A DNA stretch of 40,000 nt. Origin: Kribbella antibiotica (lineage in GTDB: Bacteria > Actinomycetota > Actinomycetes > Propionibacteriales > Kribbellaceae). Numbering within the stretch: the stretch's first letter is position 1; the number at the start of each line of letters is the position of its first letter. The position numbers and the translations under genes were made by a program. The stretch covers positions 42,267 through 82,266 of the forward strand of contig NZ_SMKX01000014.1 of the NCBI RefSeq assembly GCF_004349055.1, written 5' to 3'. Below the pieces are notes generated by a model that was not told where the DNA came from, searched no databases, and worked only from the letters and a program-made list of their open reading frames with translations. This document shows, piece by piece, positions 26,931 to 35,131 of this stretch.

Positions 26931-27372
26931 TCCTCCGTGGTGTGCCGTGGCCGAGACTCTGGCGGGCCCCTCGTCGGCCAGGTGCCTACCGAGGAGCGCG
27001 GCGGCCGCCCCGTGTCCAGTTGCCGGCGGCCGAGCGCAGCGAGTCTGGATGCGGGGGTGTGCTGGCCTGTCCACCTGAGCGACGAGAGACCCACCACACG
27101 GACTCTCAGAAGGAGGGTCGGGGCGGGGCGGAGCCCGGGTCCTTTATTTCCCTCACCGGTAGCTCCTCGACTGACGTGGCGCGAAGCGGATCCGCGCTAC
27201 CAGCCAAGTTCGGCGTACGGCGTACAGCTCAGGTAGTTGTCGAGACCGGCCCGTGGGTAAGGCACCATCTCGGCGGCGACCAAGTCTCCTCACCGAGGAG
27301 CCACGAGAACGGTAACGGGGTAGCCCAGCACTCCCGAAACTCAGTCCAGCCCCGGGAGCGCTCGGGTGGCCC

Positions 27373-28719
27373 TCAGGAGACGAGCAGCGCCAGTACATCC
27401 TGGCGGATCTGGGTCATGCTGGGTTCGTCGGCTGCTTCGACGTTGAGGCGTAGGAGCGGTTCGGTGTTGGAGGGGCGCAGGTTGAACCAGGCACCTTCGG
27501 CCAGAGTGATGGTGAGGCCGTCCAGCCGATCGGCGGCGGCGCCGTCCGCGGTGTAGTGCGTTTCGACGCGGTCGAGGACGGCTGGCACGTCGATGATCGT
27601 GTTGTTGATTTCGCCGCTGGCGGTGTAGCGGGAGAACTGGCCCGCCAGCGCCGAAAGCGGTTGGGTAGTCTCGCCGAGAGCGGCCAGTACGTGTAGTGCG
27701 GCCAGCATGCCGGTGTCGGCGCGCCAGAACTCACGGAAGTAGTAGTGGCCGGAGTGTTCGCCGCCGAAGACGGCGTCGTGTTCGGCCATGACCTGCTTGA
27801 TGAACGAGTGGCCGACTCGGGTGCGGATGGGTTTCCCGCCGTGCTCGGTGACTAGTTCGGCGACGGCTTTGCTGGTGATGACGTTGTAGACGATCGCGGC
27901 GCCGGCGTGGCGAGCCAGTTCGCGGGTTGCGATGAGGCTGACGACGGCGCTGGGAGACACTGCTTGACCGTTCTCGTCGACAAAGAAGCAGCGGTCGGCG
28001 TCACCGTCGAAGGCCAGGCCAACGTCGGCCTGGTGCTCACGGACGGCAGCGCACAGGTCGACGAGATTGGCTGGTTCCAGCGGGTTGGCCTCGTGGTTGG
28101 GGAAGGTGCCGTCGAGCTCGAAGTACAGCGGCACGATTTCGAAGGCGGGGTGAACGAGTACGGCCGGTGCGGTGTGTCCGGCCATGCCGTTGCCGGCATC
28201 CACCACGATCTTCAACGGGCGACTGCCCGCGAGGTTGACCAGGCTGTGCAGGTACTTGGCATAGGGCTGCAGCAGGTCTTCTGAGCGGGTGGTTCCGGCA
28301 GGGCCGTCGTAGGTGGGCAGTCCGGTCTCGAGCAGGGTCCGGATTTCGGCCAGGCCGGTGTCTTGTCCGACCGGGGCTGCTGCGGCGCGGCAAAGTTTGA
28401 TGCCGTTGTAGCCGGCGGGGTTGTGGCTGGCGGTGATCATCGCGCCGGGGACATCGCGGGTGCCGGAGGCGTAGTACAGCAGATCGGTGGAGGCCAGCCC
28501 GATGGCCAGCACGTCGCTGCCCCTGCTGTTCGCGCCAGCGGCGAAGGCTGCGGCCAGTTCGGGTGAGGACTCACGCATGTCCTGGCCGACAGTGATCAGT
28601 TCCGCACCGGTCAGGTGCGCGAAGGCGGCACCGATCTGGAAGGTCAGCTCGGCGTCGAGCTGGTCCGGGACGGTGCCGCGGATGTCGTATGCCTTGATCA
28701 GGCTGGTGAGGTCTCGCAT
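27373..28719 (-). CDS. phosphomannomutase/phosphoglucomutase (alpha-D-phosphohexomutase family)
   Basis: Start at ATG 28717-28719 (MRDLTSLIKAYDIRGTVPDQL...). Active-site loop GAMITASHNPAGYNGIK, metal loop AFDGDADRC, sugar loop GGEHSGHYYF. Confidence 0.9.
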   Translation of the reverse strand: MRDLTSLIKAYDIRGTVPDQLDAELTFQIGAAFAHLTGAELITVGQDMRESSPELAAAFAAGANSRGSDVLAIGLASTDLLYYASGTRDVPGAMITASHNPAGYNGIKLCRAAAAPVGQDTGLAEIRTLLETGLPTYDGPAGTTRSEDLLQPYAKYLHSLVNLAGSRPLKIVVDAGNGMAGHTAPAVLVHPAFEIVPLYFELDGTFPNHEANPLEPANLVDLCAAVREHQADVGLAFDGDADRCFFVDENGQAVSPSAVVSLIATRELARHAGAAIVYNVITSKAVAELVTEHGGKPIRTRVGHSFIKQVMAEHDAVFGGEHSGHYYFREFWRADTGMLAALHVLAALGETTQPLSALAGQFSRYTASGEINNTIIDVPAVLDRVETHYTADGAAADRLDGLTITLAEGAWFNLRPSNTEPLLRLNVEAADEPSMTQIRQDVLALLVS

Positions 28720-29741
28720 GAGGTCTTGGTCCTTAGCTTGTCGATGAGCAGGCTGCACTCCACGCCCCGAGATTCGGTGTCGTCCAACACCAGATACTGC
28801 ACAGGCAAGGTATCCAGTGCGCTGACCACGGTCGGCACCCGGTCGGTTGGTACCAGCGCGAACAGGCATCCGCCGTGTCCTGATCCGGTGAGCTTCGCTC
28901 CGTGGGCTCCCGCTTCCAGGCTGGCGGTGACGCAGCGGTCGATCAGCGGGGTCGAGCACCCCATGTATTCGGTGAGGAGTTGATGGCTGCGGCTGATGAG
29001 CCCGCCAAGGTAGGCGTAGTCGATGCCCGGAGCTGTCACAGCGGCCGCTATCTCCTCGACCAGTGGCGGGGCAAGGTCGCGGTAGGCCAGCATCCGGTCT
29101 TCTCCGGCTGCGAGCCTGTCGCGTTTGCTGACCAGCGCGCTCGCCGTGGTTCGCCGCTGCAGGGTGTCGATCAGCACCACCTGCACGCCGAGGGTCGGCG
29201 CCAGCAGGTGGGTGGCGGGAGGTGTGGATGCTTCGACTCGGCGCAGGCCACCGTAGGTGCAGGCGAGGAAGTCCATCCAGCCGGCTCCGGAACCAACCAG
29301 GGCCTCGGCGCTGTGTGCGAGCCCAGCCAGCCGCGCCAGGTCAGGTACCGCTGCTTCGGCGGCGGTGAGAAGTGCTGCGGATGCTGCGACGGTGACCGCG
29401 GCACTGGAGGAGACCCCGGCGCCTACGGGTGCGGAGGTCTGTGAGACCAGCCGTGCGCCGGAACCGTCGGTGAGGATCTGGAGCGCGCAGGCCTGGAGGT
29501 AGTCCAGTTTGTCGCCGCTCAACCGCCCGAGCCGGCGCGCTGCGATCCTGCGGTGGGCGTTGACGGGGTGTTTCGCGATCAGCTCGACCGATCGGCTGTG
29601 CGGATCGATGGTGGCGGTGACCTCGGTTCGCAGCCCGATCGCTGCGACCACGGACGGGCCGCCGATCATCCAGTCCAGGCTTTCCCCGGCCAGGCAGATA
29701 CGCGCGGGCACGGTAGCCCGGGCTGTTGAGGCCTCAGGCAT
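28698..29741 (-). CDS. GHMP-family kinase (sugar/polyol-phosphate or mevalonate-kinase-like)
   Basis: 347 aa. ICLAGESLDW, the GHMP motif II SAPVGAGVSSSAAV, and a C-terminal GAHGAKLTGSGHGGCLFAL motif III. Confidence 0.85.
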   Translation of the reverse strand: MPEASTARATVPARICLAGESLDWMIGGPSVVAAIGLRTEVTATIDPHSRSVELIAKHPVNAHRRIAARRLGRLSGDKLDYLQACALQILTDGSGARLVSQTSAPVGAGVSSSAAVTVAASAALLTAAEAAVPDLARLAGLAHSAEALVGSGAGWMDFLACTYGGLRRVEASTPPATHLLAPTLGVQVVLIDTLQRRTTASALVSKRDRLAAGEDRMLAYRDLAPPLVEEIAAAVTAPGIDYAYLGGLISRSHQLLTEYMGCSTPLIDRCVTASLEAGAHGAKLTGSGHGGCLFALVPTDRVPTVVSALDTLPVQYLVLDDTESRGVECSLLIDKLRTKTSCETSPA

Positions 29742-30597
29742 CGGCGCTCACCCGCCGGGTCTCGGGCAGTGGCTGGGTGCAGGACCTGCACGCCGGTGAC
29801 AGTGACCAGTCCGCGCGGGCATGCGCGGCCCGGTAGCCGCTCATCTGGTCACCGGTCCACAATTCGGTGAACGAGGCCTCGGTCAGGTCGCCGATGACGT
29901 AGCCGGCGTGGTCGTCGAGGTCGGGATAGACGCAGCAGCACATCTTCAGCCGGCCCCGGAAGTCGATGCTGGCGCTAGTTGCGGTCATCCAGCACGCCTC
30001 GATGCGGGGTGAGGCGAGCATCGGCAGTTGGGTGACGGTTCCGCCGCGGTTGTTGTAGGCGGCAATGATGTTCGGGCCGATGACCTCAACCTTCACCTCA
30101 CCGCGCTGCCAGACCAGCGCGAGGCCCTGCCGCACCACACGCTCCTCCCACGGCCACTGCGCCAGCCCGGCACGCCGGGCCCACGTACGCAGCGACTCGT
30201 ACGACGCGGGTGTCTCGGCACGGTGGGGGTAGCGAGTCACCCGCAGGTACTGCACCCCGGCCGCGAGCAGCCGCGTCAGCATCGGCTCGCGCAGCACGTC
30301 ACCATTGGTGTAGATCGCAGGCTTGGCCCTCGGTAGCACCTGACCGACATGGTCCAGCTCGTCGAATACCCGAGGGTTGAGCAGGGGTTCGTTGTAGTTG
30401 TGGTTGGCCAGCCAACCGTCATAGCCCATCGCGCCCAGTTCGCCGGTGATCTTGGCGAACAGATCCCAGTCCATCAGCTCCTGGTCATGGCGAAGTGATC
30501 CTTCGCCGTTGGGACACCACCCGCAGGTCCGGTTGCAGCGGCGGCTGGTCTCCAGTTCCACATAACGCGGCAACGCCACGCCTGACCCGTTATCCAT
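29734..30597 (-). CDS. radical SAM enzyme with Cys-rich C-terminal (SPASM/twitch-like) extension
   Basis: Start at ATG 30595-30597 after GGAGAAG. CNRTCGWC (CX3CX2C) at aa 21-28. C-terminal cysteines: ...CWMT...KMCCCVYP...SPACRSC. Confidence 0.85.
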   Translation of the reverse strand: MDNGSGVALPRYVELETSRRCNRTCGWCPNGEGSLRHDQELMDWDLFAKITGELGAMGYDGWLANHNYNEPLLNPRVFDELDHVGQVLPRAKPAIYTNGDVLREPMLTRLLAAGVQYLRVTRYPHRAETPASYESLRTWARRAGLAQWPWEERVVRQGLALVWQRGEVKVEVIGPNIIAAYNNRGGTVTQLPMLASPRIEACWMTATSASIDFRGRLKMCCCVYPDLDDHAGYVIGDLTEASFTELWTGDQMSGYRAAHARADWSLSPACRSCTQPLPETRRVSADA

Positions 30598-30786
30598 CGT
30601 TGGCTTCTCCAAATGTCTTGTGCAGCAGCGGATTCCCGTTGCTGGTGAGCGGAACTGGTGAGCCCGGCTTCGCTGAGATGTGCAATGAGCCGAGTGCGGC
30701 GTGGTCGGAGACCGGGGCTGCCGCCGGACGCGGTCTATGGGTGGTCGCCAGACCGATCGACGTGTCGAGGGCATTCGCCGCGCGGG

Positions 30787-31094
30787 TCAAATGGTCAGGG
30801 GCTGGGATCGGTGCGGGGCGCTGGGGGCGCTGACCTCGTAGGTGGGGGCCAGGAGGTTGAACCTGACCCAGCGCGGCGCGAGCTGGTTCACGAGCTCGAT
30901 CGTTTGGTCGATCCCGAGGCCGTGGGCTTCGGCGTCGATGACGCCGGTGTTGAACCCGGCACCGGCGGCCGCGGTGGCGATGTAGACCATCCCGAGCACG
31001 GGGGGTGAAGCTGTTCACCGGGGGCGCAGTGAGTAGTCACGCAGTGGTGCGTTGACGAGCAGGAGGTCCAGCTGGCGGCCGGGGTCTCCTTCAT
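30787..31094 (-). pseudogene. N-terminal remnant of a cobalamin-binding (class B) radical SAM protein
   Basis: Joined across frames: ...QLDLLLVNAPLRDYSLRPR / VNSFTP / PVLGMVYIATAAAGAGFNTGVIDAEAHGLGIDQTIELVNQLAPRWVRFNLLAPTYE. This resembles the B12-binding N-domain pattern (LLxNPP...PxLGLxYxAA...G...xxD). Frame breaks sit around a C-run near 31005-31015, and the sequence ends after about 90 codons. Confidence 0.45.
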
Positions 31095-31173: not shown

Positions 31174-31653
31174 CTAATCTTTCGCGAGAAGGGTCGAGGC
31201 CCAGCACGCGATGCCCTCCGCGCGACCCAATGCGCCCAGACCCTCCGCCCGTTTTCCTTTGACCGTGACCGGCGCGCCCACCACACCTGTCAAGCGTGCG
31301 CTCATCTCCACCCGACGATGCGAAAGAATCGGCCGTTCGCAGATCGTCACGCAGTCGACGTTTAACGGCCGCCAGCCTGAATTGGCAACGAGCGCCACAA
31401 TCTCGCGCAAAAGTTCAATGCTATCGGCCCCGACGCACCTTTCATCAGACTCAGGGAAGACTTCTCCCATGTCGCCCAGACCAGCCGGACCCAAGAGGGA
31501 GTCGCCAATAGCGTGGGCTATGACGTCCGCGTCGCTCAGCCCGACAAGCCCACACTCGCCAGGAAATTCGACGCCGCCGAGGATCAAGGGGCGACTTGCC
31601 CCGGCGCTGCTGAACGGGTGTACATCAAACCCAAGACCAGTTCGTATATCCAT
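31174..31653 (-). CDS. IspF-fold protein (2-C-methyl-D-erythritol 2,4-cyclodiphosphate synthase paralogue, divergent)
   Basis: 159 aa. GLGFDVHPF, LGGVEFP, SDADVIAHAIGDSLLGPAGLGDMGEVFPESD, GADSIELLREI and LGRAEGIACWA align without gaps to E. coli IspF. The His42 position is Leu, and KATTTE reads KGKRAE. Confidence 0.85.
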   Translation of the reverse strand: MDIRTGLGFDVHPFSSAGASRPLILGGVEFPGECGLVGLSDADVIAHAIGDSLLGPAGLGDMGEVFPESDERCVGADSIELLREIVALVANSGWRPLNVDCVTICERPILSHRRVEMSARLTGVVGAPVTVKGKRAEGLGALGRAEGIACWASTLLAKD

Positions 31654-31685
31654 GTGAAACTCCTCAACAATTGACGGCTCGGCCT

Positions 31686-32408
31686 CTAGCAGCAGTATCG
31701 CTCGACCGCGCGGCGATCGTCTTCATTGTCAACGTCCCGGACTCGATCGCAACGGTATGCGTATATCGAGACGTAACTCTTCCTGACGACAAACGGCAAG
31801 AAGTCACTGAGGCCGGTAGCACCTTCTGCGGCCGCCCCTGTTGCAAGCCCCAGGAGCGGACGATTGTAAAGAAGCACACCCTGGGATATCACCGGTTCTA
31901 ACGCGAGAGCTCGACCTATCTCAGCGATTCGGCCGCTAGGGTGAACACGAACTCCTTGCTCACTCCGTGAATCCTCCGGCCGCCTGTCTCGCACCCACTG
32001 AATCCCCGTCGCCTGAGCCTTCTCAAACGAGGAAATCCTGCTGAGAAATCTCACAAACTCACTCTCCGGAAACACAGCGTCCGCCAGAACTATCAGTACA
32101 CGCTCTGTTGTGACAGCGCCAAGGCCGGCGACCAAACTCTCGAGCGTGCCCGATGTAACGCATTCGACCGACGTTGTCGGTGTAGCTAAGTCCAGGTCGC
32201 GTACAAACCGACCCACGTCCGGATCAGTGGCCCGGCTCACGACCACCAGTGAGTCGAGGTCACCCCTATCCAGCAACCGCAAGAGCCGACCGATCATAGG
32301 CTCACCGCAGACAGGAACCAGAGGCTTTGGAGTACTCGGCCACGCCTCCTTCAGCCGAGTTCCCTCTCCAGCCGCAAGCACTACCCCAGTTATCGCGCCC
32401 TTCGTCAT
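31686..32408 (-). CDS. nucleotidyltransferase (NTP_transferase fold, LicC/RmlA-like)
   Basis: 240 aa. GVVLAAGEGTRLKEAWPSTPKPLVPVCGEPMIGRLL matches the LAAGxGTRL...PKPL signature of sugar-/alcohol-phosphate nucleotidylyltransferases. Confidence 0.8.
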   Translation of the reverse strand: MTKGAITGVVLAAGEGTRLKEAWPSTPKPLVPVCGEPMIGRLLRLLDRGDLDSLVVVSRATDPDVGRFVRDLDLATPTTSVECVTSGTLESLVAGLGAVTTERVLIVLADAVFPESEFVRFLSRISSFEKAQATGIQWVRDRRPEDSRSEQGVRVHPSGRIAEIGRALALEPVISQGVLLYNRPLLGLATGAAAEGATGLSDFLPFVVRKSYVSIYAYRCDRVRDVDNEDDRRAVERYCC

Positions 32409-33778
32409 TGCCCACCCTCCGCCCGGCCAAGGATCCGGGACTTCTCCGGGACAATACGCTCAGATATGTGCGCCATGAGATCCTCGATCATGGCTGGTTC
32501 ATAAACAGATGCGTTGTAGGTGGACACGAGCTCAAAGCCGCCGCCCGGGGCGTCTTCAACCAGTTCAAGCGCCAACCGATCGTTGTGGCTCGGGTCGGCA
32601 TCAGTATCTATCCAGAAGAACTCAACCTCCACGCCAGGAATGACCGGTGCCCTCTGGTGTCTGTACTGTGTAAGCAAGATGGACCGCGTTCCCAATATGT
32701 CGTCGACGCGGTGCGAAACAATTCGCTCCGCCAGATATTGATACGGGATCTTCGAATTCTTTAGCACCGCGAACAGCTCCGCCTGCGTTTGCTTGATGAC
32801 TTCGCCAAACCCAGGTCCAGGCGAGACGGGGAGCGAGAAGAGTATGCGATTGATGAAATACCCTATTGCTCGGTTAGCCGCCGCGGTAGAACGGCCGGAT
32901 ACAGTGATGAGCAAGTCTGGTGCACAGGCATCCCCTCGCTCCTGAAGTGCGGAGACCAGTGCTGCCGTGATCAACATGAATGGAGTTGCGACGTGGTCTC
33001 GGTGGCGTGACATTGCGGCCGCGACCTCGTCGGCAGAGTGACTCACGGCACTGTGCTTCATCTCTGCGGCTGTCGCTTCGCTCGTGCCTGATCCGCGGCT
33101 TGGACTCGCGACAAGATGATCGCTGGCTCGCCAGCGTCCCTCCCAGAACTGGAGCGATTCCTCAGCCCTCGATGTTCGAAGAAAGCGATCTTCCTCAAGT
33201 GCGAATGCAGCCTGACCCCAATCGGCCGTTCTCTCCGAGACGCCCGGCGATCGATGAACGAGATGGTATCGGTATGCAGTCGACAGCTCATCGAGGAACA
33301 CACTGACCGATTGGCCATCGAAAACAACATGGTCAGCCGAGAAGCCCACCAAGCAACGGTTCGGCAACTGACAGACGACTGCGCGGACGAGTGGGGGTGC
33401 GTCCAGATCGAAAGGCTTCCCCAACTCAGCTGACAGCAGATCCTCAGCGCAACGCGAGTCCCCACCTTCGGCCAGGTTCAACACCTGCAGCGGCCATTCG
33501 AACTCGGTCCGCGAAACACACGCTGCAAAGCACGAATCTGTACCGGCTGGAAAGAATTGGCGCAGGCCGTCGTGCCTCCGACCAATGACATTCAAAGCGG
33601 CCTGCAGTGCACCCACGTCGAAGGCCCCAGATATCCGTAGACCGAACGTTACCGGGGGCTTTCGGACAGGCGTCGGTCGGCGATACTGCTCGATGCGGGT
33701 ACGCTGATTGAACGATGTGTACGTAGGGCCTCCGGGCGGCCGGCTATCAGTCGCACTGTCGTGTCCTGGCGATGTCAT
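32405..33778 (-). CDS. stand-alone NRPS-type condensation (C) domain protein
   Basis: 457 aa. SADHVVFDGQS corresponds to the HHxxxDG core as DHxxxDG (second, catalytic His kept). ATGA overlaps at both ends (33775-33778 and 32405-32408). Confidence 0.8.
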   Translation of the reverse strand: MTSPGHDSATDSRPPGGPTYTSFNQRTRIEQYRRPTPVRKPPVTFGLRISGAFDVGALQAALNVIGRRHDGLRQFFPAGTDSCFAACVSRTEFEWPLQVLNLAEGGDSRCAEDLLSAELGKPFDLDAPPLVRAVVCQLPNRCLVGFSADHVVFDGQSVSVFLDELSTAYRYHLVHRSPGVSERTADWGQAAFALEEDRFLRTSRAEESLQFWEGRWRASDHLVASPSRGSGTSEATAAEMKHSAVSHSADEVAAAMSRHRDHVATPFMLITAALVSALQERGDACAPDLLITVSGRSTAAANRAIGYFINRILFSLPVSPGPGFGEVIKQTQAELFAVLKNSKIPYQYLAERIVSHRVDDILGTRSILLTQYRHQRAPVIPGVEVEFFWIDTDADPSHNDRLALELVEDAPGGGFELVSTYNASVYEPAMIEDLMAHISERIVPEKSRILGRAEGGQ

Positions 33779-35112
33779 CGGGCTCGCCCCAGCGTGTTGG
33801 ATGAAGCGTCACCAGGTGGCAGTGGCCCGCCCAGTTCCCGGTACCAAGCTCGTGCGGTGCCTGGTTCGATCCCGAATACCTCGTCGAGGTGTCGGCGTGC
33901 GGTCAGTAGATGCCGGTCGAGTTCACTCGCGGTCCCCGCGCGCAGGGTAATGTTCGCCATTCGGTAGCCGCATTCTTCTGGCGTCTGCCCGTAAAGGGCC
34001 ACAGCGTCTACGCCCGCGACGCCCGGTAGTCTTCTCAGCTGCGCCGCAGACACATGAGTCTTGACCTCACTGTGTCGATCGGCCAGTGGTGGGAACAAGC
34101 CTGCCGCCCAGCCCCGGGCCGGTGAAGTCGGAGAACTCGGGACACGCGCGATGGCGAGACTTAGGGCGGATCGTACGAGGTCGTGTCCGTTCGTGAGCTT
34201 GAGAAGGCGATTTAGATGGCCCCCAACTCGTCCGTTGATCTCGATGATTTCTGGCCCGTTGGGAGTGAGCTTGACCTCGGTGTGCGTCATCCGCCACCGC
34301 ACGCCTAGGACGCGCAGCGCGGATGACACAAGACGTGCAACAGCTTCGCGCTCCTGAGCCGGAAGGCGGGATGGGGTGATGTCGCCAGTGACATGGATCG
34401 CATCTGCGCCGTCCTGAGCCGCGCGATGAATGATCTCGACCGGTGTCTTGTCGAAGATCGCGACGTGGCGGTTGGAGTCGGCGGTGTTGACTGTCTCGAC
34501 GGACACAAAATCGGCGAGGACGGGGGAACTCGCCGGGTGAGCGCCGTTGGACAGCCTCGTCTCGAGCATCAGCCCTTGCCACTTCTCACGGTGCCGTAGC
34601 TGGTGGTTGATGTCGTCGGGGGAATTGATCATGGCAATGTGGCCGCCACCAACTCCGCGGCGGGGTTTGAGGACCGCCGGTAGACCGACATGCTGTGCGG
34701 CGAGCTGTAGCTGGGCTGGTGAGTCGACCTTGAGGGCACGCACTCGTGTGAGGCCGGCGGCGGCGAGCCGGTTGCGCTGGACGAGCTTGTCCCACGGTTG
34801 AGTCTGGTCGGCCGGTCCGGGCAAACCATGTTCGGCGGCGGTAGCGTCCACGGCGTCGAGTGCGTCGTCGTGGAAGGTTGTAATTCCGTCTAGAGCAAGG
34901 GCGCCGACGGTCTCGCTGAGGCCAGCTTTGTGGACGATGTGAACCTCGGCGAGCAACCTGGCCGTCGCGGCGATGTCCGGGTGAGCGCTGACCGTCGCTT
35001 GATGGAACAGAAATACCGGCTGGCACAGGTCTACCGCAGCGCGGCAGACGTCGGGCAAATTGGCCGCCCCATAGGGTAAGTGAACGATGCCGACCCGCGG
35101 CAAAGTCTTCAT
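33775..35112 (-). CDS. ATP-grasp ligase
   Basis: Start at ATG 35110-35112 after AAAGGAGG. GLPAVLKPRRGVGGGHIAMINSPDD and PEIIEINGRVGGH are typical ATP-grasp elements. The longer track ORF overlaps the upstream gene. Confidence 0.8.
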   Translation of the reverse strand: MKTLPRVGIVHLPYGAANLPDVCRAAVDLCQPVFLFHQATVSAHPDIAATARLLAEVHIVHKAGLSETVGALALDGITTFHDDALDAVDATAAEHGLPGPADQTQPWDKLVQRNRLAAAGLTRVRALKVDSPAQLQLAAQHVGLPAVLKPRRGVGGGHIAMINSPDDINHQLRHREKWQGLMLETRLSNGAHPASSPVLADFVSVETVNTADSNRHVAIFDKTPVEIIHRAAQDGADAIHVTGDITPSRLPAQEREAVARLVSSALRVLGVRWRMTHTEVKLTPNGPEIIEINGRVGGHLNRLLKLTNGHDLVRSALSLAIARVPSSPTSPARGWAAGLFPPLADRHSEVKTHVSAAQLRRLPGVAGVDAVALYGQTPEECGYRMANITLRAGTASELDRHLLTARRHLDEVFGIEPGTARAWYRELGGPLPPGDASSNTLGRAR

Positions 35113-35131
35113 CGCGTCCTCCTTTGGTCTG

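Follow-up and report, generated by a model that had tools for sequence, protein, structure and literature searches.

A horizontally acquired second IspF-fold gene paired with a non-IspD nucleotidyltransferase in Kribbella antibiotica: a candidate for neofunctionalisation

We have analysed a stretch of 40,000 nucleotides (the window; all positions given below refer to it) from the genome of Kribbella antibiotica, in which a gene coding for an IspF-like protein, P0001, is the last of eight minus-strand genes forming an island. In the order of the strand, these genes encode a FemAB-like protein, a peptidyl carrier protein (PCP), an MFS transporter, an adenylation (A) domain, an ATP-grasp enzyme, a condensation (C) domain, a nucleotidyltransferase (NTase) and P0001 itself (Table 1). 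The NTase gene lies upstream of the IspF-like gene on the same strand, and 32 nt separate its stop codon from the ATG of the latter. The FemAB-like protein had no sequence relative in the PDB, the true start of the ATP-grasp gene is possibly the Met at 35112, and the C domain has DHVVFDG in place of HHxxxDG.

Table 1. Coordinates of the island genes and of the sequence features of the IspF-like gene discussed in the text.
Feature	Position	Strand	Evidence or remark
FemAB-like (Acetyltransf_6) protein, first island gene	38169..39254	-	PF13480, E 6e-5
Peptidyl carrier protein, GGNSL motif	37920..38165	-	PF00550, E 7e-12
MFS efflux transporter	36694..37923	-	PF07690, TIGR00900
Stand-alone adenylation domain, DltA-like	35132..36694	-	PF00501, PF13193; TIGR01733, 282.9 bits
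ATP-grasp L-amino-acid-ligase-like enzyme	33775..35340	-	best PDB matches BacD and other L-amino acid ligases
Stand-alone NRPS condensation domain, motif DHVVFDG	32405..33778	-	PF00668, 111.9 bits; PDB relatives
Partner nucleotidyltransferase P0121, 240 aa, MobA-like / sugar-1-P NTase fold	31686..32408	-	PF12804, 65.9 bits
Shine-Dalgarno GAGGAG of the IspF-like gene	31660..31665	-	6 nt 5' of the ATG; read from the sequence
IspF-fold paralogue P0001, 159 aa	31174..31653	-	ORF and translation; PF02542, TIGR00151; AF2 model
Zn triad Asp10 (31624-31626), His12 (31618-31620), His47 (31513-31515)	31513..31626	-	E. coli Asp8, His10, His42; invariant columns
Leu39 codon CTG, replaces E. coli His34	31537..31539	-	alignment to E. 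coli K-12 IspF
Flexible substrate loop FPESDE, residues 66-71	31441..31458	-	canonical FPDTD; clade D63E, T64S
Ile109 at the E. coli Lys104 position	31327..31329	-	clade I/I/I/L
KGKRAE, residues 132-137, including the Mg ligand Glu137	31243..31260	-	Acidimicrobiia-type variant of KATTTE

The open reading frame of the IspF-like gene, as read from the sequence, is intact over all of its 159 codons. Its product scored 164.5 bits against the Pfam profile YgbB (PF02542; cut-off 26.7) and 145.3 bits against TIGR00151 (cut-off 116.45), and it matched about 30 solved IspF sequences with a best E value of 2.6e-32. It is 42-46% identical to solved structures of the family (for example 1GX1 from E. coli, 3F0D from B. 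pseudomallei and 2UZH from M. smegmatis). The AlphaFold2 (AF2) model of P0001 had a pLDDT of 91.4, and its top Foldseek matches were all IspF, with TM scores of 0.92-0.94 and an rmsd of 1.2-1.5 A for the single chain. From the profile scores, the matches to solved IspF sequences and the superposition of the model, P0001 is predicted to be an IspF-fold protein in good order, sharing with the family the fold, the Zn triad, the Mg-binding Glu and the Ser35-Asp36-x-Asp38 segment.

A search of sequencing runs listed no RNA run as carrying the sequence, and two DNA runs with weak matches. The source genome, of 9.28 Mb, contains two YgbB matches. The second of these is located on contig C117 in a carD-ispD-ispF locus and shows the canonical motifs GHSDGD and ATTD, so that the first-pass annotation of this DNA, which had called P0001 a paralogue and had proposed looking for the canonical genes elsewhere in the genome, was correct on this point. 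P0001 is a true paralogue and is 39% identical to the housekeeping IspF of the same genome. Exactly one YgbB match, at 38-44% identity, was present in 96 of the 97 other Kribbella genomes, and the one genome where none was found is 65% complete. The adjacent NTase had no homologue in the same 97 genomes. The IspF-like gene differs from other members of its family in that it adjoins neither ispD nor any other MEP gene, being an acquired second copy in a peptide-type island. Horizontal acquisition of the gene together with the island is indicated by the low GC3 of the island genes (31.1-39.3 kb; 0.61-0.76, compared with 0.79-0.84 in the flanking native genes and 0.815 in the housekeeping ispF), by the break at 30682 of nucleotide homology to another Kribbella genome, by an IS remnant which marks the edge of the island, and by the nearest relatives of P0001, which are from Acidimicrobiia. 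The remnant consists of IS-type transposase fragments (HTH_23/HTH_28 and HTH_21/HTH_Tnp_1, in different frames) at 39425-40000, just upstream of the first gene of the island.

The first-pass annotation had aligned P0001 to E. coli IspF without gaps and, from this alignment, had reported that the Zn ligands Asp8 and His10 are kept and that the third, His42, is replaced by Leu. For the mapping of residues we used E. coli K-12 IspF from NC_000913.3, and the alignment of this protein to P0001 contains two 3-residue indels. The codon concerned is CTG and does encode Leu, as had been stated, but this residue, Leu39 within GLVGLSDADV, aligns to His34 in GLLAHSDGDV of the E. coli protein. The true counterpart of E. 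coli His42 (VALHAL) is His47 of P0001 (VIAHAI), a residue invariant in all alignments made. His34 had therefore been mistaken for His42, an error of hand alignment which the annotation itself had named as a way in which its claim could fall, and the loss of a Zn ligand was rejected. In M. smegmatis IspF the equivalent of His34 is His37, while Asp11, His13 and His45 are the Zn ligands (PMC2151065); since this spacing and the alignment to E. coli IspF agree, the Zn triad of P0001 is complete. The ligand of the second cation (Mg), Glu or Asp at position 135, is likewise kept, the aligned residue being Glu137, and the alignments showed that D10, H12, S40, D41, D43, H47, G63, P108 and E137 are all retained.

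What has been lost is a residue that anchors a substrate loop. The side chain of His34 forms hydrogen bonds with the carbonyls of Asp63 and Asp65, and these bonds fix in place the flexible loop 61-71, by which the methylerythritol-2-phosphate (ME2P) part of the substrate is positioned; the attacking 2-phosphate is held by the backbone amides of His34 and Ser35 and by the hydroxyl of Ser35 (PMC2151065). The His34-Ser35 segment of IspF is found in P0001 in part, with the Ser retained as Ser40 and the His changed to Leu39.

The second residue difference put forward by the first-pass annotation was in the KATTTE segment, which reads KGKRAE in P0001. This reading is right, but the segment is not special to the paralogue. 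The nearest relatives of P0001 are Acidimicrobiia IspFs of 60-67% identity, and these combine KG[KRN]RAE with a retained His34. An IspF of the KGKRAE type is the sole YgbB match, encoded directly downstream of ispD, in four genomes of Acidimicrobiia (two of them complete chromosomes), and it is for these two reasons that we regard it as the housekeeping enzyme of Acidimicrobiia. KGKRAE is thus a lineage-wide trait and not a peculiarity of P0001, which has in common with the Acidimicrobiia housekeeping enzymes the changes Thr132 to Lys, Thr133 to Arg and Thr134 to Ala, as well as Gly131 and the overall sequence. In annotation, the gene should accordingly be read neither as an IspF with a dead metal site nor as one in which KGKRAE is a defect. 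At the position of Thr133, a contact of the alpha-phosphate, P0001 has Arg135, and Arg was found there in 37 of 142 diverse representatives. Thr133 is not truly defining for IspF, because Arg is a normal alternative that is present in the sole-copy enzymes of Acidimicrobiia. The "strictly conserved" Thr133 is Arg in the sole IspFs of Acidimicrobiia (L003, L033 and L073, for example) and in about a quarter of the diverse representatives, so that Arg amounts to another way of binding the alpha-phosphate.

The features that do set P0001 apart emerged when it was compared with 122 close relatives and with 150 diverse representatives of 50%-identity clusters. Among 5.8 billion proteins, Leu at the His34 position was found in just three others, P0002 to P0004, which are metagenomic and 72-78% identical. 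A scan of the GTDB species representatives yielded no further member of this group, and one metagenome scan, in which the generic pattern SDADVIAH dominated, returned only canonical Acidimicrobiia IspFs of at most 65% identity. In the tree, P0001 to P0004 are monophyletic (SH-aLRT 99) and nested within the Acidimicrobiia IspFs, which are themselves sole YgbB copies beside ispD; the stem of the clade is long, at 0.47 substitutions per site, the median for tip branches being 0.09. A clade defined by Leu, as the first-pass annotation had suggested looking for, therefore exists and has four members, although the Lys-Arg state in the KGKRAE segment, which was to have accompanied the Leu, is not specific to it.

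Six substitutions with respect to solved IspF are fixed in the clade. Residue 39 (E. coli His34) is Leu in the clade, whereas His is present in all 122 close relatives and in 143 of 149 diverse representatives. Residue 56 (Ala51) is Pro, found in 3 of the 150 diverse representatives, with Ala in 99% of the close relatives. Residue 62 (Ile57) is Met, and the diverse representatives have Ile (124), Leu (24) or Val (2) and never Met. Residue 68 (Asp63) is Glu, again found in 3 of 150, with Asp in 95% of the close relatives. Residue 69 (Thr64) is Ser, where Thr occurs in 80% of the close relatives and the diverse set has Thr 76 times and Ser 37 times. Residue 109 (Lys104) is Ile or Leu; close relatives have Lys (71%) or Arg (19%), and of the diverse representatives 133 of 150 have Lys (75) or Arg (58) and none has Ile or Leu. 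The changes I57M and K104I/L thus both have a count of 0 in 150. The housekeeping IspFs of Acidimicrobiia, in the midst of which the clade arises, keep His34, Ile or Leu57, Asp63 and Lys or Arg104, and the clade does not.

The changed positions are those of residues which anchor the loop over ME2P, touch the methyl group of ME or stack on the cytosine, the last being the role of Lys104 (Lys107 in M. smegmatis) (PMC2151065). The changes of the clade thus cluster in that half of the active site which is specific to the substrate, and the half responsible for the chemistry is unchanged. The four members, from different samples, have a mean column identity of 88%, and every metal ligand is invariant, which argues for purifying selection on what is probably a working site. 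A caveat is that P0002 has Gly at the position of the ribose-binding Asp56.

The partner of P0001 in the island was identified as non-IspD by its profile scores, which lie under both IspD cut-offs (PF01128, 22.8 bits against 27; TIGR00453, 27.3 against 181.3). This agrees with the first-pass annotation, where the adjacent NTase had been described as not of IspD type. Among solved proteins, the NTase is closest to RmlA and inositol-1-phosphate cytidylyltransferase, with E values of just 1e-7 to 1e-5. A search of 5.8 billion proteins at E<1e-20 found two homologues only, P0162 (69% identity) and P0163 (66%); the plasmid collection contained no match, and an Atlas search with the NTase returned just generic NDP-sugar pyrophosphorylase clusters. 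P0162 and P0163 are encoded on contigs of 9546 and 4060 bases, and the same sizes are recorded for the contigs of P0002 and P0003, from the same source. The match in contig size suggests that the NTase accompanies the His34-less IspF, on common contigs in two metagenomes. A search with the C-domain protein in the same 5.8 billion proteins, at the strict threshold of E<1e-40, recovered only the query itself, and because of this the conserved unit may be just the NTase-IspF pair, with the rest of the island perhaps not co-conserved.

The order of the last two genes of the operon, with the NTase before the IspF-fold enzyme, suggests the logic of IspD-IspE-IspF in the MEP pathway, that is, activation as NDP-X and then elimination of NMP. 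The island departs from that pathway in that its NTase is of the MobA or sugar-1-P type, that an IspE-type kinase is missing, and that its other genes make peptide bonds and not isoprenoids; searches with Pfam and TIGR profiles detected no terpene or MEP gene, including ispD and ispE, in the island. The reading that we prefer, though tentatively and at somewhat short of an even chance, is that P0001 is an active NMP-eliminating cyclase acting on the NDP-linked product of the partner NTase and recruited into a peptide-type island. The NTase would form NDP-X by condensing X-P, a small molecule bearing a phosphate, with an NTP that is probably CTP. The trimer of the IspF-like protein would then bind the nucleotide in its conserved pocket, and the Zn site (Asp10, His12, His47) and the Mg site (Glu137) would activate the beta-phosphate. 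A phosphate or hydroxyl nucleophile within X would attack the beta-phosphate and expel NMP. This would yield a cyclic phosphate or cyclic diphosphate, transfer of a phospho-X group to an acceptor being the less likely outcome. The product could serve as a building block or tailoring group for a compound which the A-PCP-C, ATP-grasp and FemAB-like enzymes put together, and the MFS pump would export the final compound. P0001 would in this case be enzymatically active but no longer act mainly on CDP-ME2P, and X, like the NTP, can be named only by conjecture.

Repurposing of an IspF scaffold within an operon resembling one for secondary metabolism had also been the conclusion of the first-pass annotation, and it is still the best reading, although both of the reasons given for it there have failed. 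It is instead based on the status of P0001 as a paralogue, its horizontal acquisition, the long-branch clade with its unique pocket substitutions, and the co-conservation with a novel NTase. Several points weigh against it. Loss of His34 does not in itself prove a new function, as variants at this position occur in IspD-IspF fusions, and the His34 side chain has been reported as an anchor of the loop and not as part of the chemistry (PMC2151065). P0002 has Gly at the ribose-binding Asp56 position, and conservation may not extend beyond the pair to the other genes of the island. Furthermore, the island contains no IspE-like kinase that could supply a second phosphate, and the GHMP kinase nearby belongs to a separate module. 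A second phosphate, and with it a kinase, would not be strictly required, since IspF can reportedly cyclise CDP-ME to a 3,4-cyclic monophosphate, as Herz et al. are said to have found in 2000.

Taken a step further, and with slightly more reserve than the cyclase reading itself, the NTase and the IspF-fold protein could represent a previously undescribed two-enzyme cassette which makes a non-isoprenoid cyclic phosphate or cyclodiphosphate (or carries out a phospho-transfer) from an NDP-activated precursor, for use in a small peptide natural product. The literature searched regards IspF (YgbB) as a drug target and as a family with a single function, and it contained neither an IspF-like enzyme in a non-isoprenoid cluster nor anything relevant on IspF self-resistance or on a cyclophosphate. 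If the cassette reading is true, P0001 would be the first neofunctionalised member of an otherwise monofunctional family. Repurposing would imply that the IspF scaffold can be reused for other NDP-linked substrates, and it would point to a phosphorylated or cyclic-phosphate natural product. With its metal site intact, the case of P0001 is less dramatic than the first-pass annotation proposed, yet it is a rare and coherent candidate for neofunctionalisation.

Three other explanations were weighed, with some of the probability left to none of the four readings. An unlikely one, which the first-pass annotation had not considered, is that P0001 is a self-resistance copy, in other words a genuine MEcPP synthase whose pocket substitutions make it insensitive to an inhibitor that the island produces against IspF or the MEP pathway, for instance a cytidine-nucleotide-like peptide conjugate synthesised with the help of the NTase. 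The presence of dxrB in the FR-900098 cluster is reportedly a precedent for a self-resistance copy of a MEP enzyme. As in that type of target duplication, a diverged extra copy of an essential enzyme is found here in a biosynthetic island that also encodes an exporter, and the copy that would be sensitive lies elsewhere in the genome; the catalytic residues are all kept while residues contacting the ligand are changed, and substitutions of His34 are tolerated in IspD-IspF fusions. The conservation of P0001, however, differs from the dxrB type in that it tracks the NTase and not the whole cluster, since the NTase is co-conserved with P0001 whereas the C-domain protein, searched at E<1e-40, is not; this fits an enzymatic pair better. 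The long stem and the several pocket changes also exceed what resistance usually needs, no cluster for a natural IspF inhibitor was found in the literature searched, and IspF as the target of the product is a conjecture. Were this so, P0001 would point to the existence in nature of a compound inhibiting the MEP pathway, of direct interest for antibacterial and antimalarial discovery.

Less probable again is that P0001 is a redundant but ordinary IspF which hitch-hiked on the transferred island and still makes MEcPP. Its score above the TIGR00151 equivalog cut-off, its intact fold and metal sites and its nearest relatives, which are housekeeping enzymes of Acidimicrobiia, would all be expected of such a gene. 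An island devoid of ispD, ispE and terpene genes would not, and neither would the accelerated stem and the substitutions fixed at near-invariant pocket positions in four members that are 72-78% identical, nor the pairing with a non-IspD NTase, which judging from the matching contig sizes is kept across contigs; in addition, a second copy is present in none of the 97 other Kribbella genomes. Least probable of all is a non-catalytic or decaying protein, either a nucleotide-binding or scaffolding subunit or a gene in the course of being lost, for although the clade is very rare and has lost a residue that about 96% of the family retain, together with the cytosine-stacking Lys (and P0002 also the ribose-binding Asp), the ORF is intact with a good Shine-Dalgarno sequence, the model is confidently IspF-like, the four members share the high column identity and the invariant metal ligands described above, and the retention of all metal ligands and of the Ser that binds the 2-phosphate makes a non-catalytic binding role less likely than the first-pass annotation had implied.

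The diverse representatives also bear on the standing of His34 in the family at large. This residue is not absolutely invariant, and Phe, Asn or Tyr was found in its place five times among the 150. Two of these variants, P0277 and P0297, are IspD-IspF fusions with Asn or Phe, and are presumably housekeeping enzymes. Because some bifunctional IspDF proteins carry Asn or Phe there, His34 may be less essential to MEcPP synthesis than the structure papers imply.

Outside the island, the minus strand carries at 19574-24965 a pair of very large neighbouring ORFs, of 771 and 1042 aa, which have no Pfam match. Between the IspF-like gene and the radical SAM gene of the neighbouring block lies a minus-strand ORF of 70 aa (30787-30999) with a weak match to a B12-binding domain (E 9e-4); it may be what is left, at the junction of the island, of a radical SAM gene of class B. 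The neighbouring block itself, at 27371-30682 (3.3 kb), encodes a radical SAM/SPASM enzyme, a GHMP kinase and a phosphomannomutase. These three genes were considered as part of the IspF-like unit and were rejected, since they form a separate block of native GC which is also found in one other Kribbella genome (G024), without the island. The block shows 91% nucleotide identity to its counterpart in that genome, which stands beside DUF2397/DUF2398 genes in an unrelated context, and its radical SAM gene is present in 2 of 98 Kribbella genomes. The three genes have the appearance of a sugar-phosphate module that is mobile or patchy in its distribution.
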